Shown: positions 6,207-29,717 of the stretch, in pieces | Layout of the letters: each line of letters opens with the position of its first letter | Numbering within the stretch: the first letter of the stretch is position 1 | NCBI GenBank assembly: GCA_049968235.1 | Contig: JBMFRC010000006.1 | Coordinates: 32,001-96,000, forward strand | From: Candidatus Hydrogenedens sp. | Lineage (GTDB): Bacteria > Hydrogenedentota > Hydrogenedentia > Hydrogenedentales > Hydrogenedentaceae | Direction of reading: 5' to 3' | Length of the DNA stretch: 64,000 nt | Made by a program: the position numbers and the translations under genes | The notes under the pieces: model-generated | Told to the model about the DNA's origin: nothing | Seen by the model: the letters and a program-made list of their open reading frames with translations, nothing else | Database searches by the model: none

Positions 6207-7610
6207 TTATTTTTTTAGTTCTGGCAAACTTGCAGCTGCAATAGATTGTCCTACTCTTCTATTTTTTTCGTCCGGCAATTGGACATTAATTTTTTCATTT
6301 ATCTCAGGAAACTCTGTTTTTAATACTTTTAGACATTCTTCTAACATGATAGGACCTCCATTGCCGGAGGTACACCGTCCTAAAATGAGTACATGCTTTA
6401 TATCATAGAAATCATTGTAATGAGCAAGAGTATATCCCAAATAGGTACCCATAGTTTGCCAAATTTTAATAACTTCGGGATTCCCTTTTTCCAATTCTTC
6501 TTGTATTAGTTTCAATTTTTCTGCATCGGTGATATTTTCAGGAATTTTTATGCCTGCTTTCGGAGCAAGACGAAACACACATTGTTGAGAAAAATAATTG
6601 GCACCTACTCCCCTATCTCCTGACCATTCTTCTACGGGAGCATCGGGATTATAATCCACAGGGGCAAAGGCAAGTTCATTTAACCAATCTGTTATATTCC
6701 CTGCAGTGGTAACATAGCCACCCGCTTCACTGGAACCCATAGCAATTCCTAATACAGCATTGTCACCAATAGACATCGAACCTGCCAATGCTGTAACCTC
6801 TCCATCATTAACAACAACCAGCGGTACTCCCAGTTCTTTTGACATACGATTAAACAATTCATGCACCTCACCAAAACGTTCTTTAGGAACCCCTCTAAAT
6901 AATGATGCTATCATGGCACGATTATTGACATATACTCCAGCAGCACTTCCACCGACAGCATCCAATCTCGGCATTTTTGATGCGGCTGTTTTTATGGCTG
7001 TCATTATTTCATTATAGTGATAGTTGGGGTCTGTCTGTTTACGGGGTTCCCATATTGTCTCTTCGCTATATACCACTTCTCCATCTATGACAGCGGATGC
7101 TTTACGGTCAGAAGCACCTAAATCAAATCCGACACGACAACCATCCATGTGCCTACCCAAACGTTGTGATGTCTCGTTTGCATGAGGGACATCATTTTCC
7201 GATTTACATGGAACTATCGTAAATGGATTTTCATACACATCTTCTCCCATAAATTTATAGTCGAAGGCTCTCGCTCCTTGTAAAGAATAAGTTGCCTCTA
7301 AATAACGAATTAATGGTTTTGGAGCATAAACATATACCTTCCATCCTCCTTTTTGCCATAGTAAAAACTTTAATATTCTTTCTATATAATAAAATCCTGA
7401 TTCAAATAAAGGATGTCCTTCTGGAAATACTTCTGTCTCAAAACAAGATATAGAATTGTTTAACCTTTCTAAAGCAATAATAACTTTTACTGCATCTTTT
7501 GTTTCTTTCACTTTCTTTTTAAATTGGTCGTTTACTAATTTTGGTGGAATAAAACCGGGGTCCATAGGAGGAACTATTTGTGGTTTTACTAACATCCAAT
7601 CCAGATTCAT
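6207..7610 (-). CDS. ASKHA-superfamily sugar kinase (ROK/glucokinase-like, no zinc motif) with ~150-aa N-terminal extension
   Basis: Phosphate-1 motif GFDLGASD, VVVNDGEVTALAG, GIAMGSSEAGG, and adenosine motif ILGRCTSGNGG. It lacks the ROK CxCGxxGC motif. GGAGA RBS present. Confidence 0.55.
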   Translation of the reverse strand: MNLDWMLVKPQIVPPMDPGFIPPKLVNDQFKKKVKETKDAVKVIIALERLNNSISCFETEVFPEGHPLFESGFYYIERILKFLLWQKGGWKVYVYAPKPLIRYLEATYSLQGARAFDYKFMGEDVYENPFTIVPCKSENDVPHANETSQRLGRHMDGCRVGFDLGASDRKASAVIDGEVVYSEETIWEPRKQTDPNYHYNEIMTAIKTAASKMPRLDAVGGSAAGVYVNNRAMIASLFRGVPKERFGEVHELFNRMSKELGVPLVVVNDGEVTALAGSMSIGDNAVLGIAMGSSEAGGYVTTAGNITDWLNELAFAPVDYNPDAPVEEWSGDRGVGANYFSQQCVFRLAPKAGIKIPENITDAEKLKLIQEELEKGNPEVIKIWQTMGTYLGYTLAHYNDFYDIKHVLILGRCTSGNGGPIMLEECLKVLKTEFPEINEKINVQLPDEKNRRVGQSIAAASLPELKK

Positions 7611-7638
7611 ATACTTTCTCCTATATCAATATCATTTT

Positions 7639-8610
7639 TTATAGTTGATCGTTCTTTTTTGCACACAAAAGAGCCGAGCCTAATGCTACTGCATCATCAC
7701 CTAATTTTCCTATTTCTAACGATACTTTTTTTCTTAGAAATGGCATGGCATGTTCTTTAATGGCCCGTTGAATTTCTGCTTCGTATATTTTCCCAACTGC
7801 TTCTATCAGTCCCCCACCTAATATAACCAATTCTGGACTCATTACATTTATAAGATTTGCGATACCCACCCCTGTTAAATATGCCGCTTTTCTCACGATA
7901 TCCTCAACTTTTTTCTCTCCATGTTCTATTGCATCTGCAATCACACTACTTCTTATTTTAGAAATATCTGTCCCTACTTTTTCTGCAAGGTATGTTGACT
8001 CACCGCGAAGAATTAGTGCGGAAATTTCCCGTGTTATTGCTATTCTCGATGCCAATGCTTCCAAGCATCCTCTTTTACCACAACCACATAATGGACCATC
8101 TATTTGTAATGTCATATGCCCAACTTCTCCTGCACCACCAGAAGCACCATGAACAATCTTGCGATTCACAATTAGTCCTCCACCAATACCTGTTCCCGGA
8201 AAAACACCCACAACATGTTTTGCTTCTCTATTATTACCTAATAGCCACTCCGCATAAGTTCCTAAATTTACATCATTATCTAATACAACAGGAACGGCAA
8301 AATGTTTTGAAAGAATATCGGCAATAGGAAAATTTTCCCATCCAAGATTTGGTGTATTTATTACAATTCCATTTTTCGGGTCAACAGGTCCAGGGGCTCC
8401 AATTCCTATCCCTACAATTTTAGGATTTCCCGCTTTTTCAATCGATTCTTCTATAGTTTGAATGATTTTATTTTCGGGTTTTGTATCTTTTAACCAACCT
8501 TTTGTTTTTTTACGACATCTTGAGATAATTTCAAATTTGTTATTAACAACAATAGATAGTATTTTTGTACCTCCGACATCCACACCTACAATATATTCAT
8601 CTGATTTCAT
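7639..8610 (-). CDS. ROK family glucokinase
   Basis: GVDVGGTK, LDNDVNLGTYAEW, GTGIGGGLI, and the zinc motif HMTLQIDGPLCGCGKRGCLE. Start set to the ATG (MKSDEYIVGVD) with an AAGGAAA RBS. The track TTG start lies 6 codons upstream. Confidence 0.85.
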   Translation of the reverse strand: MKSDEYIVGVDVGGTKILSIVVNNKFEIISRCRKKTKGWLKDTKPENKIIQTIEESIEKAGNPKIVGIGIGAPGPVDPKNGIVINTPNLGWENFPIADILSKHFAVPVVLDNDVNLGTYAEWLLGNNREAKHVVGVFPGTGIGGGLIVNRKIVHGASGGAGEVGHMTLQIDGPLCGCGKRGCLEALASRIAITREISALILRGESTYLAEKVGTDISKIRSSVIADAIEHGEKKVEDIVRKAAYLTGVGIANLINVMSPELVILGGGLIEAVGKIYEAEIQRAIKEHAMPFLRKKVSLEIGKLGDDAVALGSALLCAKKNDQL

Positions 8611-8682
8611 AAATTTTCCTTTTGACAATTATAGGTTTAAATAATATAGGTTAATTATACAAATTGTGAGAGGTGAAAAATA

Positions 8683-9216
8683 CTATTTTATTTTTACAGA
8701 TTCCGTTAACTTTATTCCATATTCAAATACTTCTTTATTCTGGTCATGGACTTTCCTGGGTAAATTAGAAAATATTGCATTTTGCCAGCATTCATAGGGA
8801 ATATTCATGTAATTACTTAAAGCACCTAAGAGACATATATTAAAATTTTTTTGATTTACAGGCAGATATTTTTCTCCTTTGAGAAGTGATAGTTCCCTAC
8901 TTTCTCCGACAATAAGAGAAATATCTATCACGATCCCATCTGGTTTTAACCGATACAAATTGTTTTCCAATTCGTCAGGATGCATTAAAACAAGAAAATC
9001 TGCCTCTCCATATGGAACCATAGGGCTAAAAACCTTTTTCCCGAAACGCACATCACTGGATACAGAGCCCCCTCGTTGACTCATACCATGTATTTCACTT
9101 TTTCGGACATCATATCCAGCAAGAAACGCTGAATCCGCCAGGATATTTGAAGATAAAATAACTCCAGTTCCACCAATACCTGTTAAGACAATATTAATTA
9201 CTTCCTGTTGCGACAT
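8683..9216 (-). CDS. iorB: Indolepyruvate:ferredoxin oxidoreductase beta subunit (pyruvate/ketoisovalerate oxidoreductase gamma-like)
   Basis: TGIGGTGVILSS and GMSQRGGSV motifs of the POR gamma/IorB family. AGGAG RBS. Lies immediately downstream of iorA. Confidence 0.8.
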   Translation of the reverse strand: MSQQEVINIVLTGIGGTGVILSSNILADSAFLAGYDVRKSEIHGMSQRGGSVSSDVRFGKKVFSPMVPYGEADFLVLMHPDELENNLYRLKPDGIVIDISLIVGESRELSLLKGEKYLPVNQKNFNICLLGALSNYMNIPYECWQNAIFSNLPRKVHDQNKEVFEYGIKLTESVKIK

Positions 9217-10801
9217 TCGATTTTTCTCCTGTTGTCTGTTGTATTTCAGTTTTTTGTTGTTTCTTTCTTAACAAGGCACATGTTTTTCTCATAACAATAA
9301 GATTCGTCTTGTTATTATCAAGAGCTTCTTCCAACGTTTTTTTGAGAACAGAAACACGATCAGTAACAACTACATTTTCCACTCCGATGGCTTTTGCAAT
9401 ATCTTCAATTACTACTTGATTCGTTGGTTCATGATTTAATTTTTTACCCGTGCCTGGATGCTCTTGCATACCTGTCATTGCAGTTGTATTATTGTCAAGG
9501 ACAATAATGATATGTCCTGTTGGAGGTGGATTGTAAACCATTTCCACGACACCGGGCAAACCACTATGGATAAAAGTGCTGTCTCCGATTACACTAACCA
9601 CTTTCTTTGCTTCTTCAGGTGGCAATGAGTGTCTTAAACCAAGCCCAACGGTAATACTGGCACCCATACAAACACACGAGTCCATAGTCTGAAAAGGAGG
9701 CAATACACTTAAAGTATAACAACCGATATCACCTGTAACGATACAGTTCATTTTCCCTAACAAAGTAAAGGTTGCTCTATGTGGACAACCATCACATAAT
9801 CTTGGTGGTCTTTCTCGTTTTATCGGTGGTTCTGGCGAAATATCCCCTTTCAGAATTCGGCGTACCCTATTAACATTCAGTTCTCCAAAACGATACATTT
9901 CTGGCTTTTCTTCCACAGGGATACCATAATATCGACAATTTTCTACTAAAAATGGGTCTCCTTCCTCGATGACTATGCACCTTTTATGTTTTTGCACAAA
10001 ATGACGAACTTTCTCTTCGGGAAATGGATAACACATCCCTATTTTCAAAACAGAAGCATTCGGTTCCGCTTCCAGAACATGGAGATATGAGACACCGGAG
10101 GTTATAATTCCTAACTCTTCAGATTTAATTTCTTCTTTATTAAGTTTACAGATTTCATTCCATTTCTTTATTTGTGCCAATTTTTCTCTTAACTTTCTAT
10201 GTGCCGGTCTTGCATAACCAGGAATCATAACCCTCCCCGGTTTATCTGGATTATATTTAACAGGTAATACGGGGCTGTATTTCTTTTCTTCATATTCCAC
10301 AATAGACATCGAATGACATACTCTTGTAGTGGGTCTGAGTATAACAGGCAACTTCCATTCCTTTGAAAGACGAACTGCTTCAAAAAAGAAATCATAACAT
10401 TCTTGACTATCACATGGTTCCAACATCATTAGCCCTGCAGAACGGGCATAATTGCGGTTATCCTGTTCATTCTGACTGGAATGCATATCAGGGTCATCAG
10501 CAGAGATAATAACAAGAGCACCTTCAACACCTGTATAAGCCACAGTAAATAATGGGTCCGATGCTACATTTAGACCCACATGTTTCATTGTCACCAAAGC
10601 ATGTCCGCCGGCAAAAGCAACGCCAATACCCACTTCGAGAGCTACTTTTTCATTTGGACACCACTGTGCCTTACCACCATACTCTGAAAAATACTCTAAA
10701 ATCTCTGTTGAAGGTGTTCCAGGATAACCCGTCCCCAAAGTAATCCCGGAATGAATCCCTGCTAATGCAATCGCCTCATTTCCAAACATTAATTTTTTCA
10801 T
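9194..10801 (-). CDS. iorA: Indolepyruvate:ferredoxin oxidoreductase alpha subunit (TPP-dependent)
   Basis: N-terminus LMFGNEAIALAG...GYPGTPSTEI, TPP-binding GDIGCY..., and C-terminal CDGCPHR. Start revised to the ATG (MKKLMFG) with a GGGAG RBS; the track TTG start is 7 codons upstream. Confidence 0.85.
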   Translation of the reverse strand: MKKLMFGNEAIALAGIHSGITLGTGYPGTPSTEILEYFSEYGGKAQWCPNEKVALEVGIGVAFAGGHALVTMKHVGLNVASDPLFTVAYTGVEGALVIISADDPDMHSSQNEQDNRNYARSAGLMMLEPCDSQECYDFFFEAVRLSKEWKLPVILRPTTRVCHSMSIVEYEEKKYSPVLPVKYNPDKPGRVMIPGYARPAHRKLREKLAQIKKWNEICKLNKEEIKSEELGIITSGVSYLHVLEAEPNASVLKIGMCYPFPEEKVRHFVQKHKRCIVIEEGDPFLVENCRYYGIPVEEKPEMYRFGELNVNRVRRILKGDISPEPPIKRERPPRLCDGCPHRATFTLLGKMNCIVTGDIGCYTLSVLPPFQTMDSCVCMGASITVGLGLRHSLPPEEAKKVVSVIGDSTFIHSGLPGVVEMVYNPPPTGHIIIVLDNNTTAMTGMQEHPGTGKKLNHEPTNQVVIEDIAKAIGVENVVVTDRVSVLKKTLEEALDNNKTNLIVMRKTCALLRKKQQKTEIQQTTGEKSNVATGSN

Positions 10802-10905
10802 AACACTACTCCCAAAAATCAATTAAAATAACAAATAATACAATAAAGGGGGTATTATAATAATTTCCATTCATATTATTCCATTAGAAATCCATATAAA
10901 TTGTA

Positions 10906-12324
10906 CTACACAACAAATAAGTTCTTTGTCATTCGATAAAGATAAATAGGAACATATCTTATAAGTGATAAAGGTCGGGGATAAATTTTTAGTAATCTGT
11001 AAATTCTATTTGGCCTTAAAAAGAACTGTCTATTTGCTTTTCGCTGGTAATAGAAAAGAACATCATCAGGTAAGTCAGTAAGATTAATTCTCACACCAGC
11101 AAAATCTATGTTCATATAATCAAAATTCTTCAATTTTTCCGGTTTATTTTGTTTAAGCCACTCAAATAATGGTGTTCCTGGGAAAGGTACCACCGTAAAA
11201 AAACTTGCAGTATGTAACATCGAATTTGTTGCAATATCTATTGTCATTTGAAGTTCTTCTTCTGTTTCTGTCGGGAAACCCATCATACAAAAGCCATTAG
11301 CATATACCCCTTTATTGACCATTATTTCTATTCCTTTTATAAATTTTGGAATATCAAGATTTTTACAGGTAAACTTTTGCATTCGTGGTGAACCTGTTTC
11401 TAAAGCAAAAGAAGACATATAAGTTCCTGCGGAGCATAAAGCCTCCGCAATATCTTCTGTAACTAAATCCCCTCTAATCGCATTGGGAAATGTTAATTTA
11501 ATATTTAATCCTTTTTGTCTCACTAATTCAGAAAATTGTATTACCCTCTGTTTGTTAAAATTAAAATTATCATCAAGAAATTCAAATTCATTAACACCAT
11601 ATTTGTGGTTTAACCATTCAATTTCTTCAATAATTCGTTCAGGTGAACAAAATCGTATCTTTTTCCCAAATATAGAATGACACCACATACACTGGTATGG
11701 ACAACCTCTACTAGTAACTAAACACATATACTTTCTTGGAGGTAAAGGGGTCATAGATTGTAAACCCCAGTATTGCTGTATATTAATTAAATCGTATTCA
11801 GGAAACGGAAGTTTATCCAAATCCGGTTCAACTGGTAATAACCCCGGATTTTCTATAACTTCCTCTGTTTCATCTTTCCATATTATCCCTGAAATATTTT
11901 TAAGATTCTTTTTATGTGGATAACTTTCCACGATTTGCTTAAATGCTATTTCACCTTCTCCTGGCACCACTATATCTAAATGCCTGCAGTCTGAAAAAGC
12001 CTGTACCTTTACAGATGAAGCATGTGGACCACCTAAAACAATCCAACAATTAGGAAGTGATTCTTTTATTTTTTCAGCGATTAGGGGTATCAAACCTGCA
12101 AAAACTGTAGATGATGATAAGCCAACAATATCCGGTAAAAACTGATATATTTCTTTTGTTAGTTCTTTAGGTGTATCATTTTTTACTTTTTGATTGATTA
12201 ATTTTATTTCTACATCTTTAATTTCCCTTTTTAAATAGCCTGCAAGATACATAATTCCCATAGGTGGTGTAGCCAATGGATACATCGGTTTCCTATACCC
12301 CAGATTTATCAATACTATCTTCAT
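10906..12324 (-). CDS. Cobalamin (B12)-binding domain radical SAM protein, copy 1
   Basis: N-terminal B12-binding domain. Radical SAM cluster motif SRGCPYQCMWCHS (Cx3Cx2C). The central ~373 residues are identical to the downstream paralog. Confidence 0.85.
   Translation of the reverse strand: MKIVLINLGYRKPMYPLATPPMGIMYLAGYLKREIKDVEIKLINQKVKNDTPKELTKEIYQFLPDIVGLSSSTVFAGLIPLIAEKIKESLPNCWIVLGGPHASSVKVQAFSDCRHLDIVVPGEGEIAFKQIVESYPHKKNLKNISGIIWKDETEEVIENPGLLPVEPDLDKLPFPEYDLINIQQYWGLQSMTPLPPRKYMCLVTSRGCPYQCMWCHSIFGKKIRFCSPERIIEEIEWLNHKYGVNEFEFLDDNFNFNKQRVIQFSELVRQKGLNIKLTFPNAIRGDLVTEDIAEALCSAGTYMSSFALETGSPRMQKFTCKNLDIPKFIKGIEIMVNKGVYANGFCMMGFPTETEEELQMTIDIATNSMLHTASFFTVVPFPGTPLFEWLKQNKPEKLKNFDYMNIDFAGVRINLTDLPDDVLFYYQRKANRQFFLRPNRIYRLLKIYPRPLSLIRYVPIYLYRMTKNLFVV
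11147..12267. repeat. Direct repeat unit 1 (1121 bp), near-identical to 12731..13851 (offset 1584 bp)
   Basis: Direct comparison of the two tracts shows identity apart from rare SNPs (e.g. 11386 T vs 12970 C). The identical embedded antisense ORFs 11483..11680 and 13067..13264 corroborate this. Confidence 0.9.
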
Positions 12325-12489
12325 TTATTCCTCATAAAGTATTCAATATATTTTATAACATTCTAAATAATATATTACTTCCTGAATAATTAAAATTATA
12401 TGCTTTTTTTTATAATAGTTAAGCACCACTATTTAGAATTGCTTCTTTATATAAGGATATGGTTCTAATATTGTATTACACTTTATGAT

Positions 12490-13914
12490 TTATTTTACAA
12501 TAATTCCTTTCAATAATCGCTGTAATAGCATAGGAAAATACATAGTAAGATGTAATGGATGAGGATAAATTTTGATAATTCTATATATTCTATCAGGTTT
12601 AGAGAAAAACTTTATGTATGCTCTCCGTTGATATTTATAAAATACTTCATCTGGAAGGTCTGTTAAATTAACTTTGATACTCCCATATTCTGCATTATTG
12701 TAATTTATATTTTTAACCTTATTCGGGCGATTTTGTTTAAGCCACTCAAATAATGGTGTTCCTGGGAAAGGTACCACCGTAAAAAAACTTGCAGTATGTA
12801 ACATCGAATTTGTTGCAATATCTATTGTCATTTGAAGTTCTTCTTCTGTTTCTGTCGGGAAACCCATCATACAAAAGCCATTAGCATATACCCCTTTATT
12901 GACCATTATTTCTATTCCTTTTATAAATTTTGGAATATCAAGATTTTTACAGGTAAACTTTTGCATTCGCGGTGAACCTGTTTCTAAAGCAAAAGAAGAC
13001 ATATAAGTTCCTGCGGAGCATAAAGCCTCCGCAATATCTTCTGTAACTAAATCCCCTCTAATCGCATTGGGAAATGTTAATTTAATATTTAATCCTTTTT
13101 GTCTCACTAATTCAGAAAATTGTATTACCCTCTGTTTGTTAAAATTAAAATTATCATCAAGAAATTCAAATTCATTAACACCATATTTGTGGTTTAACCA
13201 TTCAATTTCTTCAATAATTCGTTCAGGTGAACAAAATCGTATCTTTTTCCCAAATATAGAATGACACCACATACACTGGTATGGACAACCTCTACTAGTA
13301 ACTAAACACATATACTTTCTTGGAGGTAAAGGGGTCATAGATTGTAAACCCCAGTATTGCTGTATATTAATTAAATCGTATTCAGGAAACGGAAGTTTAT
13401 CCAAATCCGGTTCAACTGGTAATAACCCCGGATTTTCTATAACTTCCTCTGTTTCATCTTTCCATATTATCCCTGAAATATTTTTAAGATTCTTTTTATG
13501 TGGATAACTTTCCACGATTTGCTTAAATGCTATTTCACCTTCTCCTGGCACCACTATATCTAAATGCCTGCAGTCTGAAAAAGCCTGTACCTTTACAGAT
13601 GAAGCATGTGGACCACCTAAAACAATCCAACAATTAGGAAGTGATTCTTTTATTTTTTCAGCGATTAGGGGTATCAAACCTGCAAAAACTGTAGATGATG
13701 ATAAGCCAACAATATCCGGTAAAAACTGATATATTTCTTTTGTTAGTTCTTTAGGTGTATCATTTTTTACTTTTTGATTGATTAATTTTATTTCTACATC
13801 TTTAATTTCCCTTTTTAAATAGCCTGCAAGATACATAATTCCCATAGGTGGAGATATAACGCGATATAGGAAAGAACTCCTTCCCATATTTACTAATATT
13901 ATCCTACTTTTCAT
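12490..13914 (-). CDS. Cobalamin (B12)-binding domain radical SAM protein, copy 2
   Basis: Same motifs as copy 1. The N-terminal ~20 and C-terminal ~80 residues diverge while the core is identical. Confidence 0.85.
   Translation of the reverse strand: MKSRIILVNMGRSSFLYRVISPPMGIMYLAGYLKREIKDVEIKLINQKVKNDTPKELTKEIYQFLPDIVGLSSSTVFAGLIPLIAEKIKESLPNCWIVLGGPHASSVKVQAFSDCRHLDIVVPGEGEIAFKQIVESYPHKKNLKNISGIIWKDETEEVIENPGLLPVEPDLDKLPFPEYDLINIQQYWGLQSMTPLPPRKYMCLVTSRGCPYQCMWCHSIFGKKIRFCSPERIIEEIEWLNHKYGVNEFEFLDDNFNFNKQRVIQFSELVRQKGLNIKLTFPNAIRGDLVTEDIAEALCSAGTYMSSFALETGSPRMQKFTCKNLDIPKFIKGIEIMVNKGVYANGFCMMGFPTETEEELQMTIDIATNSMLHTASFFTVVPFPGTPLFEWLKQNRPNKVKNINYNNAEYGSIKVNLTDLPDEVFYKYQRRAYIKFFSKPDRIYRIIKIYPHPLHLTMYFPMLLQRLLKGIIVK
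12731..13851. repeat. Direct repeat unit 2 (1121 bp), near-identical to 11147..12267
   Basis: See unit 1. Confidence 0.9.
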
Positions 13915-13956
13915 AATAGAAATAATACTCCCTTATATTTTCCTAATTTTTTACCT

Positions 13957-16032
13957 TTACCTATTTAACAATACTTCTAAACTATCTCCTAAAGGGAAAA
14001 GGCAAGATTTATTCAATTTTTTACAATAATTATATATGTAACTTTTACTCCTATATTCTATCAATGGTTTAATAAATTTTTTTAATACCTCTTTTTCTTT
14101 ATATGCTATGGTAAGGTAATGTTCACAATCATCATTTTTTTTATTCATATAACAAATAATAGATTTCAACAAATATATGTCTCCAAATCGAGGATATTTA
14201 CTCAAAAGGTAATCACACATTTTGTCTGCAATATAATAATGTCCATCTTTTATTAATCCTGAAATTGTATAAATATTAATCCACGATAATATAGGCCAGG
14301 TAGCAATATATTTTTGAAGAATATATAGGTTTTCTCTTTTCGCTTTTTCGTTGTTCGAAACAATACCTATTTCATCCAATAATTTATCATAATTAATATT
14401 GTTTGTATTTATAAGGACATCACAGGTATTTTTTCCCACATTCCTAAAATTTTTTGCAACTTGACCTATATATAAATTATATTGACCCGGGTATACTTTC
14501 CAGTATACATCCAAACTATTATTATTAATACACTCTGTCAACTTAGCAATAGGGTCAGAATTATAAATAGCATATAATGTTATTGGCTCAATAACTATCC
14601 ATATCCTATTTTTTTCGTTTTCATTTAATTTTTCTTTTATTTCTTCCATTGCTCCGAATAAAGTAAAAAAAGATTGATATTTCAGGTCATTCCTTTTTAT
14701 ATAAATCTTATTTATATCCCAGAATGTGGTTGTTCTTTGTCCCAGAATAATGTCATTTAACCCTGCATTCGCCTCTATAAACTCCGTTGCATTTTTATAA
14801 TCCGTTCTATTCTTAAATGATATAAAACTAACACATTGTCCTAAATAAACAGACATTAAAAGAATTGCAAGAAAATATGACAGTATTTTAGGATTAAATT
14901 TAAAGATAATCGCAGAAGATATGATATAAATCAATGGTAAGGCATAGTAGTTATACAAAGGATGGAAAACAGGTTTATGGGTAATAACTACAATACTTAA
15001 TAATGATATAACGGGAACAAGTAAAGATAAAGTAATAAAAACTTCTCCCCTATTTTTTATATCCTTATTTTGTTTTATTTTCCATAAAATACTTAAAATA
15101 TAAATAATTGTTGTTATCACAAAAATTCCAAGAATGAAATAATCGAGAACAAATATTTTTCTTACCAATATACTTAAAATAAGGCTATCTATATTCAGGA
15201 TATTTGTCTTCCATGCAGGGATTAATTCCTCAGATATTCCAACACTATCAAAACCGAATAATCTATAAAATAATACTTTTATTTCAGTCCCTCCTCTACT
15301 GTCTATAACATTAAATAAAAATGGAGACATTTTGATATACCAAATTATCCATGGAATAACAGATAAAATGGACAGCACAGACCACAACATTTTTTTTCTT
15401 AGTAACGGTTTTGGAAAACTAAAAAGAAGTACAGGAATTTGGAACAATGGTGTTAGAACATATATCGCATGGAACCATGGCAAAATCAAATTGGAAATGA
15501 AACTAACAAGACACCACTTCCAGTTTTCTTTCTTATGGCTAAAATACATCCACAATCCTGAAAAAGAAAGAATAGCAAAAAATTGAATAAATGCATAACA
15601 TTTCAGTTCTTGATGAAACCATATATTAAAAGGAGATAAACAGAAAAGTAAACAGGCAAGGAAAGATGCTTTTCTTCCTACCAATAATTTTCCAAGAAAA
15701 TAGGTCGTTACAATTGCTAAAACACCAAAGGTTATGGGTAATACCCTCCATAACCAATCGATTTCTGGAAATAAATTTATCCAGTAATACAGAATAAAAG
15801 CAGAGGCAGGGGATATACCATAATCAGGACTATTGATATATAAAAGTCTAAAATAATCAAGTATATTACAAAATTTCGCATTACCAATGACTACATATTC
15901 ATCAAACCAAACCGATTGTTCATTTAATTTATATAAACGAAATATAAAGGAAAGAAAAATTATAACTATAATATATAATAAATCACTTTTAGTAAATTGT
16001 TCTCTGGCATTTTTAGTTTGATTCGTTTGCAT
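13957..16032 (-). CDS. GT-C fold membrane glycosyltransferase (ArnT/PMT_2-like, GT39/GT83-type) with C-terminal soluble TPR-like domain
   Basis: About 11 TM helices. FDEY acidic motif in the first extracytoplasmic loop, as in ArnT/PMT. Soluble C-terminal ~200 aa. Paralog of the next gene. Confidence 0.65.
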   Translation of the reverse strand: MQTNQTKNAREQFTKSDLLYIIVIIFLSFIFRLYKLNEQSVWFDEYVVIGNAKFCNILDYFRLLYINSPDYGISPASAFILYYWINLFPEIDWLWRVLPITFGVLAIVTTYFLGKLLVGRKASFLACLLFCLSPFNIWFHQELKCYAFIQFFAILSFSGLWMYFSHKKENWKWCLVSFISNLILPWFHAIYVLTPLFQIPVLLFSFPKPLLRKKMLWSVLSILSVIPWIIWYIKMSPFLFNVIDSRGGTEIKVLFYRLFGFDSVGISEELIPAWKTNILNIDSLILSILVRKIFVLDYFILGIFVITTIIYILSILWKIKQNKDIKNRGEVFITLSLLVPVISLLSIVVITHKPVFHPLYNYYALPLIYIISSAIIFKFNPKILSYFLAILLMSVYLGQCVSFISFKNRTDYKNATEFIEANAGLNDIILGQRTTTFWDINKIYIKRNDLKYQSFFTLFGAMEEIKEKLNENEKNRIWIVIEPITLYAIYNSDPIAKLTECINNNSLDVYWKVYPGQYNLYIGQVAKNFRNVGKNTCDVLINTNNINYDKLLDEIGIVSNNEKAKRENLYILQKYIATWPILSWINIYTISGLIKDGHYYIADKMCDYLLSKYPRFGDIYLLKSIICYMNKKNDDCEHYLTIAYKEKEVLKKFIKPLIEYRSKSYIYNYCKKLNKSCLFPLGDSLEVLLNR

Positions 16033-16036
16033 ATCA

Positions 16037-18130
16037 TTATCTATTTTTCAAAAGAACAGATAGTATGGATTTATTCAATATATGATAGCCCTTTTGTTCT
16101 AATTCTTGAATGAGCAACACATCCTTATCTCCTATTCCAGAGATATTTCCTCCGTTCCACAAGTTTTTATACATATCCTTAAAAATATAATTATTTCTAA
16201 AAATACCCTCTATTATTTTTCGGGATTCATCTTGTTTGTGTTTAGAAAATAAAATTAATCCTTTTAATAATATTACATGATAGAATTCCGGAGATTTATT
16301 TATAAGATAATCACATATTTTCTCTGCAACATCTATATCTCCATTCTGTATCATCGAATTTATAATTAAAATATAATTATATGAATAAAAAGGTTGCCAA
16401 ATAGCGAAGTATCTTTGAAGTATTTCTTTTCTTCGTTGCTTTTCTATCTCATCGTTAACTTTCATTTGAAACTCTTCTATAAGGTTATCATAATCTATTT
16501 CGCCAAAGGGGCAATTTTGAATCTTTTCTTTATTAATATTTTTGTAAGAGTCCTTCTCTATTCTTAAAACATAGAGGTTAAACTTTCCCGGGAAGTGTTT
16601 TATATTCACATTAAAACCATGAGGAGATAAATTCTTTACTAATATAAATGTTGGATCTTTCTTATAAATCCATGTAATTAATGTTGTTTCCATTAATACC
16701 CATATTGAGTTACTAATCTTTTCTTCCTCCAGTGAAAGTGTGTCAACTACTGTATCAGCAATAGCCTGCAAAGAAAATACAGGATTTAATGAGTAGTCAA
16801 CTCTTTTTTTGTATACCTTCCATGTGTCAAAAACATTGGCTCCTAATTGTAGGTCAAGAACGATATCTCCTTTTTTCACATTCTCTTCCATATATGCTAC
16901 TGCCCTTTTATAATCGGGTCTTAAATTAAAATTTATAAAACCTAAACATTGAAAGGTAAATAAAAAAATAATCATTACTAAAAAAGTGGCTTTAATTAGA
17001 TGTTTATCCCATATAAAAATAGAATACGCAATAATAAGGTATAGAAACGCAAAAGCATGATAGAAATATAAAGGTAGAAAAAATGATTTCCCTGTAATAA
17101 CTCTCAAAGTAAAAAAAGGAAGTATAGAAAAGACAAAAGAATAAAGTAGCAAATACTTTTTTATTTCTCCACACTCTTTTCGCAAATTTGGTATATTTTT
17201 TACCAAATATAAACAGAACACAATAAAAAGAAAAATAGTCGATATAAATAATAAATAGTCAATAAATACCCATTTGTTTAATAAATTATCCCATATTGTG
17301 TTTCTAACTATTTCGACTGTATTTGTTTTCCAATACGGTAATAATTCATTAGAAAGACCAACACAATCAATTCCGAATAAACTTGTCACAATAAATTTTA
17401 TATTTAATGATTCCATTTCAGTAAGAGAAAGATTATATGCAGGTGGTTTTATCCAGAATATCCACAAAATGTAAGGAATTAAAACGGCAATATTTGCTAT
17501 TCCACATAAGATAGTGTCCCTAACTTTATTCTGTCTTGTAAACCATATCAACAAAAAAAACTGTATAAATGGAACTGCAAAATATACAGCATGGAACCAG
17601 GGAAGCAATAAATTAGATAGTGTTCCTATAAAAAACCATTTCTTACTTTTGCCACTACTAATGTAATTTAGAAAGGCAAACCATGATAGTAAAGAAAGGA
17701 ATAGTATAAAAGCATATCCTTTCAGTTCCTGGTGAATATAAATGTTAAATGGTGATAATACCATCAATAACCCTGCAAGAAAGCCAACCTTCCAGTCTTT
17801 TACCCATTTCCCAAGAAAATAAAGAAGTACTATAGACAGAACTCCAAAGCAGATAGGTAAAAGCCTCCATAGCCAGATATTATCCGGAAAAATATGTATC
17901 CAAAAATAATATAGAACTAACCCTCCCGGTGAAATCCCATATTCAGGGACATTTATAAACAGTAATTTAATATTTGTCCACAAATCACATATTTTGATAT
18001 TTGCTATATATACATATTCTTCATGCCATATAGACTGTTCTGTAATACGGTATAATCGCAAAGCAAAAGCAATAAGAATTAGAATAATTAGGAGAAATAT
18101 ATCTCTGTATTTGGAAATGTAATCATTCAA
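16037..18130 (-). CDS. GT-C fold membrane glycosyltransferase (ArnT/PMT_2-like), paralog 2
   Basis: Same architecture (WHEEY loop motif, multi-TM, soluble C-terminal domain). TTG start with GGAG RBS. A 4-nt gap to the downstream paralog suggests co-transcription. Confidence 0.65.
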   Translation of the reverse strand: MNDYISKYRDIFLLIILILIAFALRLYRITEQSIWHEEYVYIANIKICDLWTNIKLLFINVPEYGISPGGLVLYYFWIHIFPDNIWLWRLLPICFGVLSIVLLYFLGKWVKDWKVGFLAGLLMVLSPFNIYIHQELKGYAFILFLSLLSWFAFLNYISSGKSKKWFFIGTLSNLLLPWFHAVYFAVPFIQFFLLIWFTRQNKVRDTILCGIANIAVLIPYILWIFWIKPPAYNLSLTEMESLNIKFIVTSLFGIDCVGLSNELLPYWKTNTVEIVRNTIWDNLLNKWVFIDYLLFISTIFLFIVFCLYLVKNIPNLRKECGEIKKYLLLYSFVFSILPFFTLRVITGKSFFLPLYFYHAFAFLYLIIAYSIFIWDKHLIKATFLVMIIFLFTFQCLGFINFNLRPDYKRAVAYMEENVKKGDIVLDLQLGANVFDTWKVYKKRVDYSLNPVFSLQAIADTVVDTLSLEEEKISNSIWVLMETTLITWIYKKDPTFILVKNLSPHGFNVNIKHFPGKFNLYVLRIEKDSYKNINKEKIQNCPFGEIDYDNLIEEFQMKVNDEIEKQRRKEILQRYFAIWQPFYSYNYILIINSMIQNGDIDVAEKICDYLINKSPEFYHVILLKGLILFSKHKQDESRKIIEGIFRNNYIFKDMYKNLWNGGNISGIGDKDVLLIQELEQKGYHILNKSILSVLLKNR

Positions 18131-18188
18131 TTCAAAAGGACTCCTTTGTAAAAATTTATAGCATATATTGTCAAATTAAATGTATATT

Positions 18189-19463
18189 TTAACCAATTTG
18201 AGCGAGGATTTTTGCCAATCTTCTTTCTGATTGTATGGCTGAACGGACAGTATGATAGTTAATTTTCCACGCATGAGCCATGTAATCCCATAACAGATTA
18301 TTATTTTCATCAAATAAGGGGAACCATTCCCCAACTGCATGATTAATCACATAATCCATAACAAAACGATGTACATTTTCATATGCATCAAAGTATTTTT
18401 CATCACCAAATAATAAATAAGCATCTAACATAGCCACAAGTGTTTCTGCCTGTTGCCAAAATTCTTTATTCCTTTCCCGTGCAGGGCCATCATTAGGTCC
18501 TTCACAATATACACCCCCTTTTTCCCAATCAATTCCGTATTTTAAACAATGGTCAAACATCTTCTTCATTTTTTCTTTATAAGGTTCTACATCTTCTCCA
18601 ATAATATTCAATGTATGATTTAACAACCAACAAAATTCTACATTATGACCGAAACTGGTATTATTTAATGGCCTCCCTTCCGGGTCATCTGCATCACGGT
18701 CAGAACCCCAAACATTTTTAAATATGATAGCCCGTAAAGGTTTCCAGTCAAAACTGAATTGTGCCATCCCTGTTCCATATTCCGGATGAACCATTTTATC
18801 GTAAATTAGTTTAATTACATTTAAGGTGTCCTGCTTATGTTTAAATGCACCTGTTGCTTCATACAAATTTGTAAAGGCTTCCATCAAATGCATGTGGACA
18901 TCAAATGACTTTCTATCACCACCATACACCCCTGGCTTTTTAGGCGTCCAATCTTTCTCAAAAAATTCGCCAAATCCTCCATGTGCAATATCTACAGCCT
19001 GAGCCTTAATTGTTCTCCATGTTTCTTCAGCAAGTTCAAGGGCTTCTTCATCACCTGATGCCATCGCATACTCACTCAAGCAATAAATACCAAAGGATTG
19101 ACCATACATAATTTTACTTGGGTCAACCGGTGTTCCATCTTTTTCCGTTATCCATATCCAGCCTCTATATTGATTATCCCAAAAATGTTTCTTTAAGAAT
19201 TCTACGCCTTGTTCTGCTATTTTCAGGTATTTCCCATCTCCTAAATTGGCTCGATGTGCAGATGAATAAGTATAAATCATCCGTGCCTGACAAATAAGTG
19301 TTTTTTTTGTCTCGCCTGTTGGTCGCCCTTCACGGTCAAGGTATGTTAAAAAGCCACCATATTCTTCATCAACACCATGCGTTTCCCAGAATGGAAGTAG
19401 TTCATTAAATAAGTGGTTTTGCATTTCTTTCAAAAGTTTTTCCACGCGTTCTTTTGTAACCAT
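18189..19463 (-). CDS. N-acylglucosamine 2-epimerase (AGE) family protein (cellobiose 2-epimerase / sugar isomerase-like, alpha6/alpha6 barrel)
   Basis: LPFWETHGVDEEYGGF is the typical AGE-family N-terminal motif. Length 424 aa. AAGGA RBS. Confidence 0.7.
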   Translation of the reverse strand: MVTKERVEKLLKEMQNHLFNELLPFWETHGVDEEYGGFLTYLDREGRPTGETKKTLICQARMIYTYSSAHRANLGDGKYLKIAEQGVEFLKKHFWDNQYRGWIWITEKDGTPVDPSKIMYGQSFGIYCLSEYAMASGDEEALELAEETWRTIKAQAVDIAHGGFGEFFEKDWTPKKPGVYGGDRKSFDVHMHLMEAFTNLYEATGAFKHKQDTLNVIKLIYDKMVHPEYGTGMAQFSFDWKPLRAIIFKNVWGSDRDADDPEGRPLNNTSFGHNVEFCWLLNHTLNIIGEDVEPYKEKMKKMFDHCLKYGIDWEKGGVYCEGPNDGPARERNKEFWQQAETLVAMLDAYLLFGDEKYFDAYENVHRFVMDYVINHAVGEWFPLFDENNNLLWDYMAHAWKINYHTVRSAIQSERRLAKILAQIG

Positions 19464-26318: not shown

Positions 26319-27758
26319 GTGTCATTTTCCTCAAAAAAAACTACTGTTCTTATTATAACTTATTATGTTATTTCTTTTTTTTGTATTTTCCCCTTGTTCG
26401 GAGAAAATATTCCATGTTCGGATATATACAATGTCAAAGAACTTGGTGCCAGGGGTGATGGGATTACTGATGATACAGAGACTATCCAGAAGGCTCTAAA
26501 TATTGCTGGTGAAAAAAAAGGAGGCATAGTTTTTCTTCCTATAGGTTCTTATCTTATAAAAGGAAACCTAATTGTCCCAGAAAATGTAACACTTGAAGGA
26601 ATATGGCGTTCTCCATTTCGCGGTGAATCATCTAAAGCAGGTAGTGTTTTGCTTGCAGTTTCAGGCAAATGCGAAACAGATGGAATTCCCTTGATTCGTG
26701 TTAATACAAGTTCAACATTAAAAGGATTTGCAGTTTTTTACCCTGAACAAACAAGAACAGACCCTCCTATTCCCTATCCGTGGACAATTCAATGCAATGG
26801 TCCAGCAGATGATGTCTCATTGATAGACTTAACACTTATTAATCCCTATAAAGCCATAGACTTTGGAACATTTCCCGCAGGTAGACACAAAATAAAAAAT
26901 ATACATGCATATCCATTATATCGTGGGCTGTATATCAATCAGTGTTATGATGTCGGCAGAATTGAAGATATTCACTTTTGGCCCTTCTGGGATTTAAATC
27001 CCAATAGTCCTCTCTGGAAATTTACTCAAAGAGAAGGTATTGCTTTTATCATAGGAAAAACTGATGGTGAAATGGGACATAACCTTTTCAGTATCTTTTA
27101 TTCTATTGGTATGCAATTCATTGCAGGACCTATATATGATGAAAATAAAAATGTAATAAAAAATCTACCAGGCAGTGGAACTTATACACATTGTTATATG
27201 GATATTACACCTTGTGCGGTAAAAGTGGATAGTGCAATGGAAAATGCAGGCATTACCTTTCTAAACTCATCTTTTATGGCTAAAGTTGTAGTAAGTCCTT
27301 CCAATCGGGGTCCTGTAAAATTTGTCGGTTGCGGTTTCTGGGGAACTAAAGATTCCGATTATCAGGTTTTAACAGAAGGACAGGGAAGTGTTACCCTCGA
27401 TGCCTGTCATTTTAGTGGTTGGGACCGTATCTCAAAAGGGCTTCCATGTATCAACGCTAATAATAGATATTTAATCATATCAAATTGTGAGTTTATCGGT
27501 ACTTCTATAGAGAATTCCATCATCCAATTAGGACCTCGTCTTCGTTCCGGAATTATCACTTCCAATATAAGTCACGGAAGTTTTGAAATAACAAACAACA
27601 CATTAAAATCCGCTCAAATTATCATTAAAGATAATTTAGCAACACCTAAAACAAACTTCGTTTTAGATTGGACACTAGTAGGTCCTTTTCCAAATTCACA
27701 AATAATACATCAACAGATACAGAAATTTCTCGAGAAGGATTTAATAAAGACTTTTTAG
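26319..27758 (+). CDS. Right-handed beta-helix protein (Pectate_lyase_3 / glycoside hydrolase-like) with N-terminal signal anchor. The C-terminal part is probably continued in the next ORF via a -1 frameshift.
   Basis: GARGDGITDDTETIQKAL is the hallmark N-terminal motif of the pectate-lyase-3/GH55/GH28-type beta-helix. GTG start with AAGGA RBS, 17 nt after leuS. It ends with WTLVGPFPN, which begins a jelly-roll domain. Confidence 0.6.
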   Translation: MSFSSKKTTVLIITYYVISFFCIFPLFGENIPCSDIYNVKELGARGDGITDDTETIQKALNIAGEKKGGIVFLPIGSYLIKGNLIVPENVTLEGIWRSPFRGESSKAGSVLLAVSGKCETDGIPLIRVNTSSTLKGFAVFYPEQTRTDPPIPYPWTIQCNGPADDVSLIDLTLINPYKAIDFGTFPAGRHKIKNIHAYPLYRGLYINQCYDVGRIEDIHFWPFWDLNPNSPLWKFTQREGIAFIIGKTDGEMGHNLFSIFYSIGMQFIAGPIYDENKNVIKNLPGSGTYTHCYMDITPCAVKVDSAMENAGITFLNSSFMAKVVVSPSNRGPVKFVGCGFWGTKDSDYQVLTEGQGSVTLDACHFSGWDRISKGLPCINANNRYLIISNCEFIGTSIENSIIQLGPRLRSGIITSNISHGSFEITNNTLKSAQIIIKDNLATPKTNFVLDWTLVGPFPNSQIIHQQIQKFLEKDLIKTF

Positions 27759-28216
27759 AAATTATAGGAGGAGAAACAAAAACAGAGTTGCTGTCAAATA
27801 AAGATATAAAAAAACTTAAAGAAATATATAAAGATATAAAAATTGTTAATTATAATTCCTTACATACAAAGTCTGTAAAGATTAAACTTCATGAAATATT
27901 TGGTATGGAACCCGCTACCGCTTATGCCATTACTTATATTTATTCAAAAGAGAAACAAAATGTATTGCTCGAATTAGGGATGAATGATGGCGGAAAAGTT
28001 TTCTTAAATGGAAAAGAGGTTTATTCAAGATTTTCAAGAGACGGGATGACTTGTGAACCTGGCACCGATACTTTTACATCTGAATTAATGAAAGATTATA
28101 ATACTCTCCTTCTGAAAATCGCAAATTCAGGTGGAAAGTGGGAATTTATGGTAGAAATATATCCCGATATAAAAGAAGACATATCAATTACAACACAAAA
28201 ACCGATAAATAATTAA
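27668..28216 (+). CDS. Galactose-binding-like jelly-roll domain ORF (WxVxGPF...GSDDG-VWLNG-type domain); likely the C-terminal portion of the preceding gene, in the -1 frame
   Basis: GFNKDFLE, AYAITYIYS, LELGMNDGGKVFLNGKEVY and LLLKIANSGGKWEF match the common jelly-roll domain that starts with W-x-V-x-GPF. That start motif sits in frame 0 at the end of the previous ORF. No RBS; TTG start only. Upstream stops in this frame at 27626, 27632 and 27647. Confidence 0.5.
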   Translation: MDTSRSFSKFTNNTSTDTEISREGFNKDFLEIIGGETKTELLSNKDIKKLKEIYKDIKIVNYNSLHTKSVKIKLHEIFGMEPATAYAITYIYSKEKQNVLLELGMNDGGKVFLNGKEVYSRFSRDGMTCEPGTDTFTSELMKDYNTLLLKIANSGGKWEFMVEIYPDIKEDISITTQKPINN

Positions 28217-28244
28217 TTATAAACATAAATATATACAAATAATT

Positions 28245-29717
28245 ATGCTGTTCAACTCTGTTCATTTTGCTATATTTTTTCCCATAGTAGTTACTTTATA
28301 TTTTTTATTGCCTCATAAATTCCGTTGGCTTTTACTACTTATTGCCAGTTATTACTTCTATATGGCATGGATACCTATTTATGTTCTACTTTTACTTGCT
28401 TCAACAATTGTGGATTATATTAGTGGATTGTTATTTGAAAAAACAAAGATAGAATATAAACGCAAATTAATTCTAATTTTTAGCCTTTTAATAAATTTGG
28501 GGATACTTTTTACTTTCAAATATTACAATTTTTTTATGGATAGCGTCGAAAAACTATCTATTTATCTAAATATCCCTATAAATATTCATTACTCTTCCCT
28601 TCTATTACCCATTGGCATTTCTTTCTATACATTTCAAACTTTAGCATATACCATTGATGTATATCGTCGTAAAATAAAACCAGAAAAACATTTCGGCATT
28701 TTCGCTCTCTATGTTACCTTCTTCCCGCAATTAGTGGCTGGTCCCATTGAGAGAGCAGATACATTAATTCCTCAACTTAAACAATATCATAATTTTGATA
28801 CAAAACGAGTCACTGATGGATTAAAACTTATGGCATGGGGACTTTTCAAAAAAGTCGTTGTTGCAGACCGGTTAGGGATGATGTCCGCTTATGTTTTTGC
28901 AAATCCCCAATCACATGATGGGATGGGGCTTCTCTTTGCTATGGTTTTTTCCAGTTGGCAAATATATTGTGATTTTTCGGGCTATTCTGACATTGCAGTA
29001 GGTTCTGCAAAAGTATTAGGAATTAATTTAATACAAAATTTTGAACGACCTTATTTTTCCCGTTCCTTCCCTGAATTATGGAGAAGATGGCATATTTCGC
29101 TCATGAATTGGTTTCGAGATTATGTTTTCTACCCTCTGGGAGGCAGTCGTTATGGTGTCCTCAATACATGCAGGAATTTAATTATCGTTTTTACATTAAG
29201 CGGTGTATGGCACGGTGCAAATTGGACCTATATATTCTGGGGTTTCCTGATGGGACTATGTCTGGTCATATCTCTCCTGACCCGTGATATACGGAAAATT
29301 ATTGTTGAAAAAATTGGCTTAACGCATTTCCCTAAAATCCATCAGGGAATACAAATGTTAATAACCTACTCCATTTTCTTATTCTTTGGTGTTCCATTCC
29401 GATCAGAAAAAATAGGCGATGTATTTTATATATGGTCGCACCTATTAACAGGTTGGACACATCCTACTCATGGATTGGATTTTGATGATTTTGTCGTAAG
29501 TTTAGGTATGCCAACAGAACAGGAGTTCCATGTAGCAATAATATCTCTCTTATTTTTGATAATAGTAGAAGCATTTCAAGCATATGGAATCTCTTTACGA
29601 GAAAAACTTGAACAGCGGAATATAGCAATACGATGGGCTTGCTACTATATTTTTCTTTTTTTAATTGCATTTTATGGTGTATGGAACAGTTCACCTTTTA
29701 TTTATTTCCAATTTTAA
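28245..29717 (+). CDS. MBOAT family membrane-bound O-acyltransferase (AlgI/DltB-like)
   Basis: N-terminus MLFNSVHFAIFFP... is AlgI/DltB-like. The conserved His region WRRWHISLMNWFRDYVFYPLGG is present. About 10 TM helices. Confidence 0.85.
   Translation: MLFNSVHFAIFFPIVVTLYFLLPHKFRWLLLLIASYYFYMAWIPIYVLLLLASTIVDYISGLLFEKTKIEYKRKLILIFSLLINLGILFTFKYYNFFMDSVEKLSIYLNIPINIHYSSLLLPIGISFYTFQTLAYTIDVYRRKIKPEKHFGIFALYVTFFPQLVAGPIERADTLIPQLKQYHNFDTKRVTDGLKLMAWGLFKKVVVADRLGMMSAYVFANPQSHDGMGLLFAMVFSSWQIYCDFSGYSDIAVGSAKVLGINLIQNFERPYFSRSFPELWRRWHISLMNWFRDYVFYPLGGSRYGVLNTCRNLIIVFTLSGVWHGANWTYIFWGFLMGLCLVISLLTRDIRKIIVEKIGLTHFPKIHQGIQMLITYSIFLFFGVPFRSEKIGDVFYIWSHLLTGWTHPTHGLDFDDFVVSLGMPTEQEFHVAIISLLFLIIVEAFQAYGISLREKLEQRNIAIRWACYYIFLFLIAFYGVWNSSPFIYFQF

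Follow-up and report, generated by a model that had tools for sequence, protein, structure and literature searches.

Glycosyltransferases of the GT-C fold assemble or modify most glycoconjugates outside the cytoplasm, among them N-, O- and C-glycoproteins, lipid A, arabinogalactan and lipopolysaccharide (LPS). In some pathways another enzyme alters the lipid-linked sugar beforehand: ArnD acts on undecaprenyl-phosphate-linked 4-formamido-arabinose (Und-P-Ara4FN) ahead of ArnT, and DprE1/E2 act on decaprenyl-P-ribose ahead of the Emb/Aft GT-Cs. Class B radical S-adenosylmethionine (SAM) enzymes provide the chief means of alkylating unactivated carbons, and two radical SAM enzymes with a B12-binding domain, HpnJ (hopanoid cyclitol-ether formation) and MoeK5 (moenomycin), have been proposed to act on lipid-anchored sugars. 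To our knowledge, most class B radical SAM enzymes have no assigned substrate, and we know of no GT-C that depends on a radical SAM partner. Here we analysed a 64,000-nucleotide stretch of DNA from Candidatus Hydrogenedens sp. (assembly GCA_049968235.1, contig JBMFRC010000006.1, positions 32,001–96,000; hereafter the window, numbered from its first nucleotide), in which two genes for B12-binding-domain radical SAM enzymes (rSAMs) lie beside two genes for GT-C-fold membrane proteins. Because such genes adjoin one another across phyla in unrelated contexts, with overlapping reading frames, statistical enrichment and co-divergence, we consider it highly probable that one rSAM and one GT-C make up a functional two-gene module, duplicated here. 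The features of the locus are as follows.

10906–12324, minus strand: rSAM-A, B12-binding-domain radical SAM enzyme, the downstream 'A-type' paralogue, 472 aa
11146–12267, minus strand: near-identical repeat copy 1, core of rSAM-A, 1,122 nt with one mismatch relative to copy 2
12490–13914, minus strand: rSAM-B, B12-binding-domain radical SAM enzyme, 474 aa, chimera in which an A-type core lies between B-type N- and C-termini
12730–13851, minus strand: near-identical repeat copy 2, core of rSAM-B, 1,122 nt, gene-conversion tract
13957–16032, minus strand: GTC-1, GT-C-fold membrane glycosyltransferase, 691 aa; transmembrane domain ~15–404, alpha/beta domain 412–527, helical repeat 548–690
16037–18130, minus strand: GTC-2, GT-C-fold membrane protein paralogous to GTC-1, 697 aa, TTG start, HEEY in place of FDEY
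18189–19463, minus strand: epimerase of the N-acylglucosamine 2-epimerase (AGE) superfamily (PF07221), probable D-mannose/D-glucose 2-epimerase, 424 aa, a lineage-specific neighbour

The Arn system resembles the proposed arrangement in its logic, as a polyprenyl-phosphate sugar is made, tailored while lipid-linked, flipped and then transferred by a GT-C. ArnT is also the best structural match of GTC-1, and one version of the module (comparison locus L014) includes an ArnC-like gene of glycosyltransferase family 2 (GT2). However, homologues of ArnA/B/C/D/E/F are not among the annotated window genes, identity between a window GT-C and ArnT is 9–11%, the tailoring enzyme here would be a radical SAM enzyme, and the GT-C bears extra alpha/beta and helical-repeat domains. 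The protein O-glycosyltransferases TMTC1–4 and TMEM260 (eukaryotic) and TfpW (bacterial) have a similar architecture, with a GT-C membrane domain at the N-terminus and helical or tetratricopeptide (TPR) repeats at the C-terminus; Pfam finds true TPRs in partner GT-Cs of L009, L089 and L101, and a weak match in L015 is TMEM260-like. These known systems nevertheless have no radical SAM partner, and the window proteins have no Pfam TPR match. As for the protein O-mannosyltransferases (PMT1/2/4), the window GT-Cs show no PF02366 or MIR match, and PMT structures match over ~260 aligned columns only. The original prediction that the locus is undescribed is supported for the rSAM and GT-C genes, and we class the pairing as a variant of lipid-linked-sugar/GT-C envelope modification systems. 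No paper on radical SAM enzymes with GT-C or TPR glycosyltransferases was found in a literature search that had most subscription journals outside its scope. The pairing is therefore new to the searchable literature, both superfamilies being well known; it probably makes an undescribed envelope sugar modification.

Conservation of the rSAM/GT-C pair

The five minus-strand genes follow one another with gaps of 165, 42, 4 and 58 nt in coordinate order, exactly as first described, and the two pairs are arranged GTC-2, GTC-1, rSAM-B, rSAM-A. Their shared orientation carries little weight, because they sit within a longer same-strand run of 13 mostly housekeeping genes (6207–19463). Promoter and terminator scans of the region were at chance level and gave no operon signal. 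In agreement with the original prediction, no precursor gene for a ribosomally synthesised and post-translationally modified peptide (RiPP) lies beside an rSAM: the window gaps (19–21% GC) contain only AT-rich pseudo-ORFs of 15–28 aa. No conserved small gene was found within the module across the compared loci.

Within Hydrogenedentota the whole region is syntenic, including ClpX, Lon, LeuRS, indolepyruvate:ferredoxin oxidoreductase and ROK kinase, and since these housekeeping flanks are equally conserved we discarded this synteny as evidence of linkage. Outside that lineage (taxon labels of the comparison loci being those of the database records), two PMT_2 genes come after a 51%-identical rSAM in L005 from Phycisphaerae, where the surrounding genes are unrelated. 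The Phycisphaerae-type loci L087 and L088 alternate rSAM, PMT_2, rSAM, PMT_2, with each rSAM stop overlapping the following GT-C start by 14–17 nt. Further rSAM/GT-C pairs occur in L101 and L103, the latter with an overlap of 4 nt, so that the overlaps in L005, L087, L088 and L103 range from 4 to 17 nt. GT-C-type neighbours above the Pfam cut-off (PMT_2, Dpy19 or DUF2142), often with TPRs, flank rSAM relatives in six more loci: L009 (Desulfosudaceae; PMT_2+TPR and Dpy19+TPR), L010 (Nitrospirales), L014 (Lentisphaerae), L016 (Calditrichaeota), L022 (Aegiribacteria) and L089 (PMT_2+TPR). The L010 protein matches the Hydrogenedentota GT-C profile at 179 bits. Polytopic partners in L006, L012, L015, L019 and L023 are sub-threshold or unclassifiable and make weaker cases. 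Two other neighbours were rejected as GT-C candidates: the 673-aa protein in L102 is a secreted Pro-rich protein, and the 445-aa protein in L100 is not polytopic.

The association is also visible in aggregate. Large polytopic proteins account for 22% of genes at distance 1 from close rSAM relatives and 15% at distance 2, as compared with 1 of 110 genes at a distance of at least 5 (Fisher p = 1.3e-5). Such a protein lies within two genes in 12 of 18 close-relative loci versus 9 of 62 loci of distant B12-rSAMs (p = 4e-5), whose surroundings contain 3–8% large polytopic proteins throughout, with no enrichment. A partner GT-C is present in nine of the 13 orthologue loci (at least 42% identity) outside Hydrogenedentota synteny. 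Reciprocally, rSAMs adjoin the GT-C in every GT-C-anchored metagenome locus of sufficient length.

The two families moreover co-diverge: rSAM types 1, 2 and 3 lie upstream of GT-C types 1, 2 and 3, respectively, with 64–66% identity among the rSAM types and ~40% among the GT-C types. Copy numbers in Hydrogenedentota are equal (rSAM:GT-C 2:2 in the window, L001, L002 and L004; 3:3 in L091) and are unequal in some Phycisphaerae-type loci (1:2 in L005, 3:2 in L088); L001 and L098 have the interleaved order GT-C, rSAM, GT-C, rSAM. The gene adjacency thus survives across phyla in unrelated contexts. Of the undescribed five-gene locus put forward in the original prediction, a linked rSAM/GT-C pair with no published description found remains, and the five-gene pathway does not.

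In two loci, genes for sugar activation or transfer accompany the rSAMs. In L014, an ArnC-like GT2 (213 bits) stands between the rSAMs and the GT-C-like genes; in L006, the rSAMs adjoin a nucleotidyltransferase, a 4,6-dehydratase-like gene and a GT2 resembling AglJ/PpgS.

Several other genes recur near these modules. A small radical SAM/SPASM protein of 331–337 aa, possibly an accessory enzyme, adjoins the B12-rSAM orthologue in three loci (L089:9395-10408, L100:8675-9673, L102:431-1426); the window has no such protein. In the divergent Hydrogenedentota locus L004, a 676-aa sulfatase-superfamily protein with weak EptA-like similarity (L004:6301-8331) lies between two B12-rSAMs and beside a GT-C; the rSAM subtypes there, of 514 and 523 aa, are ~26–28% identical to the window rSAMs. 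GDSL/SGNH-type hydrolases of 430–441 aa near the module in Nitrospirales and Phycisphaerae-type loci (L010:2491-3783, L005:16621-17946, L088:14477-15790), which have no window homologue, may act on glycans as O-acyl esterases or transferases. In L073 and L083 (Bacteroidales), L058 (Caldilineales) and L050 (Omnitrophota), between two and eight distant B12-rSAM paralogues cluster with proteins of 600–770 aa and 10–12 transmembrane segments, and the theme of an rSAM with a large membrane protein may extend beyond this rSAM family.

Domains, folds and the shared rSAM core

Both rSAMs match PF02310 (53 bits, cut-off 32.1) and PF04055 (65 bits, cut-off 29.5), as expected of the two B12-binding radical SAM enzymes in the original prediction, and all 24 sequences of the family alignment have the Cx3Cx2C motif (C210, C214 and C217 of rSAM-B) without variation. 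The nearest solved folds to an AlphaFold2 (AF2) model of rSAM-B (predicted local distance difference test score, pLDDT, 92.8) are those of MgmA (best), AprD4 (second), OxsB, TsrM, CysS and TokK, with TM-scores of 0.63–0.74, E values down to 6e-21 and identities of 16–20%. These class B enzymes share the Rossmann-like B12 domain and the radical SAM barrel with the window proteins, but each has its own substrate and chemistry, these being varied, and none is encoded with a GT-C. The full-length fold agrees with those of cobalamin-bound TsrM, TokK, OxsB and CysS; cobalamin use and C-methylase chemistry would be in keeping with the family at large. A search of the window with Rfam gave no cobalamin riboswitch, the sole match being a tRNA-Arg.

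No NCBIfam equivalog came near its cut-off, and neither rSAM could be assigned to a curated subfamily. The best scores (bits, with cut-offs) were ApyD ~164–165 (750), BchE 142 (481) and Sden_1168 139 (575), with HpnJ at 122 (~577–578) and a ladderane-associated family at 79 (360); among characterised B12-rSAM equivalogs, including PhpK, KedN5, HpnR and the MgmA type, none was matched at its cut-off. A PDB sequence search gave remote matches only. Since no subfamily model claims them, the rSAMs fall outside the characterised families. The HpnJ model does align nearly full length, to a protein of similar size (~472 aa), but no genes of hopanoid or moenomycin synthesis lie close by, and the pathways of HpnJ and MoeK5 are not known to use a GT-C. 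Across the family, the last 55 rSAM residues carry a net charge of +3 to +12 and 8–11 aromatics, and helix 440–449 has the highest hydrophobic moment of the protein.

Fusions among rSAM relatives were also considered. A Patescibacteria MAG (metagenome-assembled genome) encodes a fusion of a distant B12-rSAM paralogue with an MprF-type, lipid-flippase-like LPG_synthase_TM membrane domain (L056:11368-13761), a Rosetta-stone hint that this B12-rSAM branch works on membrane lipids or lipid-linked substrates. This was the only informative fusion: the L025 relative has a weak HAD-like N-terminus, and the long relatives in L018 and L023 were rejected as fusions, having no extra Pfam domain and an added N-terminal length that may in part be an ORF-calling artefact.

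The two window rSAMs are 89% identical as proteins, and this identity is unevenly spread. The 1,122-nt core has a single mismatch, and the coding flanks outside it (57 nt at the 5' end and ~240 nt at the 3' end) are diverged, at ~60–75% identity. In relatives, A-type and B-type paralogues are 67–69% identical in the core. The rSAM-B core is 77–90% identical to A-type orthologues versus 68–73% to B-type ones, while its C-terminus is 84% identical to that of the B-type protein P0028; the rSAM-A C-terminus is 77–87% identical to A-type orthologues. Because both window cores are A-type and rSAM-B retains B-type termini, rSAM-B is a chimera arising from A-to-B gene conversion that spared the B-type termini. 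The protein P0021, from an NCBI MAG of the same species, has a B-type N-terminus, then the core, then an A-type C-terminus and represents the two copies collapsed across the repeat, which means that the repeat either disrupts assemblies or recombines in the population. A common catalytic core with different termini suggests that the two window enzymes perform the same chemistry with different docking. In this respect the chimera would be a natural domain swap pointing to the spared C-terminal helices (the last ~80 residues) as the likeliest element of partner or substrate specificity.

GTC-1 and GTC-2 are paralogues (36% identity over 641 aa, E = 3e-123), and GTC-2 aligns full length in the GT-C family alignment A2. 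Their PMT_2 (PF13231) scores, 19.7 and 21.7 bits, fall under the 26.1-bit cut-off, which partner GT-Cs elsewhere pass (41.9 and 59.9 bits in L005, 50.1 in L016, 40.5 in L089). Profile searches with PF13231 and PF02366 therefore did not by themselves support the predicted GT-C assignment, and structure did. When an AF2 model of GTC-1 (pLDDT 86.8, predicted TM-score 0.88) was compared with the PDB by Foldseek, ranks 1–42 were all GT-C enzymes (probability 0.97–1.00; ranks 1–28 with E ≤ 1e-3), spanning the ArnT, STT3/PglB, DPY19, PMT and Aft/Emb classes, with ArnT (5f15) the best match (E = 1.8e-7). The GT-C fold of the window proteins is thus confirmed at the level of predicted structure, and from this fold class the predicted donor would be a polyprenyl-phosphate-linked sugar. 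The first-loop FDEY motif of GTC-1, in which D44 is at least 90% conserved and E45 invariant, aligns with LDEN of the Phycisphaerae partners and is HEEY in GTC-2; judging from the family, this acidic motif should lie on the extracytoplasmic (outer) face.

The C-terminal part of the GTC-1 model consists of the alpha/beta domain (412–527) followed by the helical repeat (548–690). The paralogy and the GT-C fold of the original prediction are upheld; its C-terminal TPR-like domains are less clear, as Pfam finds no TPR in the window GT-Cs and the helical repeat gives only a weak structural TPR match (FKBP38, E ~0.09). No curated NCBIfam family came near its cut-off for the GT-Cs, and a PDB sequence search gave nothing meaningful. 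An exhaustive profile search returned 707 cluster representatives at E ≤ 1e-30, with many matches spanning the full length, so GT-Cs of this subfamily are not rare.

Possible roles of the pair

Overlapping reading frames and co-divergence suggest that an rSAM and its GT-C share one membrane-located entity as their target and probably form a complex. We tentatively propose that this entity is a lipid-linked sugar, which the cytoplasmic rSAM would tailor and whose product the cognate GT-C would transfer outside the membrane; we regard this as a serious possibility, somewhat short of probable. The proposal draws on the GT2 and sugar-nucleotide genes in L014 and L006, the flippase-like fusion in L056, the basic aromatic rSAM tail and the precedents named at the outset. 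The rSAM would be held at the inner membrane face by its conserved basic and aromatic C-terminal tail, by docking on the GT-C, or by both, and would carry out radical tailoring of a polyprenyl-phosphate-linked sugar, most likely C-methylation, with dehydration or rearrangement as possible alternatives. After flipping, the cognate GT-C would use its first-loop Asp/Glu motif to transfer the sugar to an extracytoplasmic acceptor, probably a protein or an envelope polymer, which the C-terminal alpha/beta and helical-repeat domains would hold in place. If so, the products could be, for example, sugars that are C-methyl-branched or deoxygenated and are added on the periplasmic side.

For both orphan families, the conservation and translational coupling of the pair yield one concrete hypothesis, namely that they handle the same lipid-linked molecule, and the module spans Hydrogenedentota, Planctomycetota, Nitrospirota, Desulfobacterota and other mostly uncultured anaerobes with little-explored envelope chemistry. 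It is conceivable, and we advance it with similar reserve, that B12-domain rSAMs form obligate cognate complexes with GT-Cs and direct their radical chemistry at either a lipid-linked sugar or the GT-C, giving a new class of modified envelope glycans or glycoproteins that is widespread among uncultivated anaerobic phyla.

Several points weigh against tailoring of a lipid-linked sugar. The case is built from comparative and predicted data, and the comparison loci, drawn from pattern scans, are a biased sample in which gene calls and Kyte–Doolittle transmembrane counts are simple heuristics. No GT-C is in view at four of the 13 orthologue loci (L007, L008, L100, L102), and five of the nine partner-positive loci belong to one Phycisphaerae-like lineage and are not independent. 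L005 and L101 retain GT-C type 2 without rSAM type 2, and the membrane+TPR partners in L006, whose N-terminal domains match no Pfam family, were not counted as GT-Cs. The GT-C partners are very diverse across phyla: BLASTP found no significant similarity between the window GT-Cs and the Phycisphaerae partners, and hhalign joined the Hydrogenedentota and Phycisphaerae profiles with a probability of 47% over ~200 aligned N-terminal residues only, so the partners are not one orthologous family. The fold neighbours of the rSAM span methylases, the protein-modifying MgmA and AprD4, a diol dehydratase that does not use cobalamin; because AprD4 has the same domain, the fold does not settle the chemistry. 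Finally, the 64-kb window holds no GT2 polyprenyl-phosphate sugar synthase or flippase (phmmer searches were GT2-negative), and Pfam annotation of 20 further window ORFs in search of donor-pathway genes gave unrelated genes only.

The main rival to a lipid-linked sugar substrate is that each GT-C is itself the target of post-translational modification by its rSAM, for instance through methylation within a cytoplasmic loop. Enzymes of this kind include MgmA and Mmp10, which act on methyl-coenzyme M reductase, and the activases of glycyl-radical enzymes. One-to-one pairing, overlapping frames, co-divergence and copy parity are all typical of maturase–target pairs, the best structural neighbour, MgmA, is a protein-modifying enzyme, and the identical cores and different termini of the window rSAMs would fit partner-specific docking. 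We nevertheless hold this to be unlikely. The rSAMs are ~50% identical between phyla, whereas their partners, spread over PMT_2, Dpy19, TMEM260-like and DUF2142 proteins, are barely alignable, and a conserved target site is hard to reconcile with partners so diverse. The persistence of GT-C type 2 without rSAM type 2 in L005 and L101 speaks against it too, and the GT2 and sugar-nucleotide genes and the flippase-domain fusion indicate lipid-linked substrates instead.

It also seems rather doubtful that the rSAM modifies the acceptor in the cytoplasm before the GT-C glycosylates it on the outer face. Such an acceptor could be a protein or peptide from a gene at another site, or a membrane lipid methylated or cross-linked in its tail or head group. 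The TPR and helical-repeat domains of many partner GT-Cs do resemble those of the protein-directed TMTC, TMEM260 and TfpW, ApyD, a RiPP enzyme, and HpnJ and HpnR, which are lipid-directed, are among the best NCBIfam similarities, and an rSAM-SPASM protein accompanies the rSAM in L089, L100 and L102. Such a scheme would, however, leave the one GT-C per rSAM and the overlapping frames without explanation, and it has neither a conserved third gene in the module nor a precursor ORF in the window gaps to draw on.

The five-gene pathway of the original prediction, in which a sugar epimerised by the AGE protein would be tailored by the rSAMs and then transferred by the GT-Cs, is improbable. The AGE gene adjoins a GT-C in every Hydrogenedentota locus, even after an inversion in L004, and there is a weak mannose theme (the AGE homologue, GH113 near the Phycisphaerae modules, and PMT_2, named for mannosyltransferases). 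Yet the module lacks AGE in every other lineage compared, synteny of the whole region in Hydrogenedentota makes the adjacency uninformative, and the AGE homologue works on free monosaccharides and needs no partner. Least of all do we expect the genes to be mere neighbours through inherited synteny with an rSAM duplication that is an assembly artefact: the 13-gene, mostly housekeeping run, the chance-level promoter and terminator scans and a 1.1-kb near-identical repeat, a classic source of assembly error, would fit, but this explanation is largely refuted by the cross-phylum adjacency in unrelated contexts, the overlapping frames, the enrichment (p ~1e-5) and the co-divergence, as well as by two distinct rSAM paralogues at the same positions in relatives and by the single mismatch and distinct termini, which favour two real copies.

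AGE epimerase and other window genes

The AGE protein matches PF07221 at 178 bits and aligns full length (residues 3–420) with PDB entries 8H1K–8H1N (469 bits, E = 1.9e-139, ~55% identity). The GHN and NYH motifs, which we take to contain the catalytic histidines of the superfamily, are both conserved in the alignment with 8H1K. These entries are the mannose/glucose 2-epimerase of Runella slithyformis (Table S1, PMC13363691). On the strength of this similarity the window gene is a probable mannose/glucose 2-epimerase, and it differs from the Runella D-mannose 2-epimerase in its GT-C-adjacent context, which is specific to Hydrogenedentota. AGE accompanies the rSAM/GT-C pair in Hydrogenedentota only and is absent beside it in the other lineages compared. 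Being restricted to that synteny and a close homologue of a free-sugar enzyme, it loses the place in the system originally given to it and probably stands outside the rSAM/GT-C module; at most, it would feed or salvage mannose. Near the Phycisphaerae-type modules, GH113 and GHL10 glycoside-hydrolase-like genes were seen (L005:4567-5724, L087:4630-5745), GH113 being the beta-mannanase family. Together with the Hydrogenedentota epimerase, these genes make a weak mannose theme, which may be coincidence.

Downstream in the same-strand run lie the alpha and beta subunits of indolepyruvate:ferredoxin oxidoreductase, the ROK kinase and a conserved 467-aa protein (6207–7610). The last has no Pfam family, only a sub-threshold ROK-like stretch, and is kept downstream of the ROK kinase in all Hydrogenedentota relatives. 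Upstream, on the opposite strand, are tRNA-Arg, ClpX, Lon and LeuRS. Among the homologues retrieved, P0002, a fragment from an NCBI MAG, is 100% identical. Elsewhere in the window, a pectate-lyase-like protein, an MBOAT O-acyltransferase (28245–29717) and an unannotated 358-aa protein are grouped at 26319–30803 and may form a separate polysaccharide O-acylation unit. A NiFe-hydrogenase large subunit with NuoF-like and NuoG-like Fe-S/flavin subunits (34165–39160) resembles a bidirectional hydrogenase module, in keeping with the genus name. At 45170–49698, a protein with an FGE-sulfatase domain precedes one of 1,127 aa that combines DUF7948, SBBP beta-propeller repeats, Ig and P-domain modules and is probably a large surface or secreted protein.

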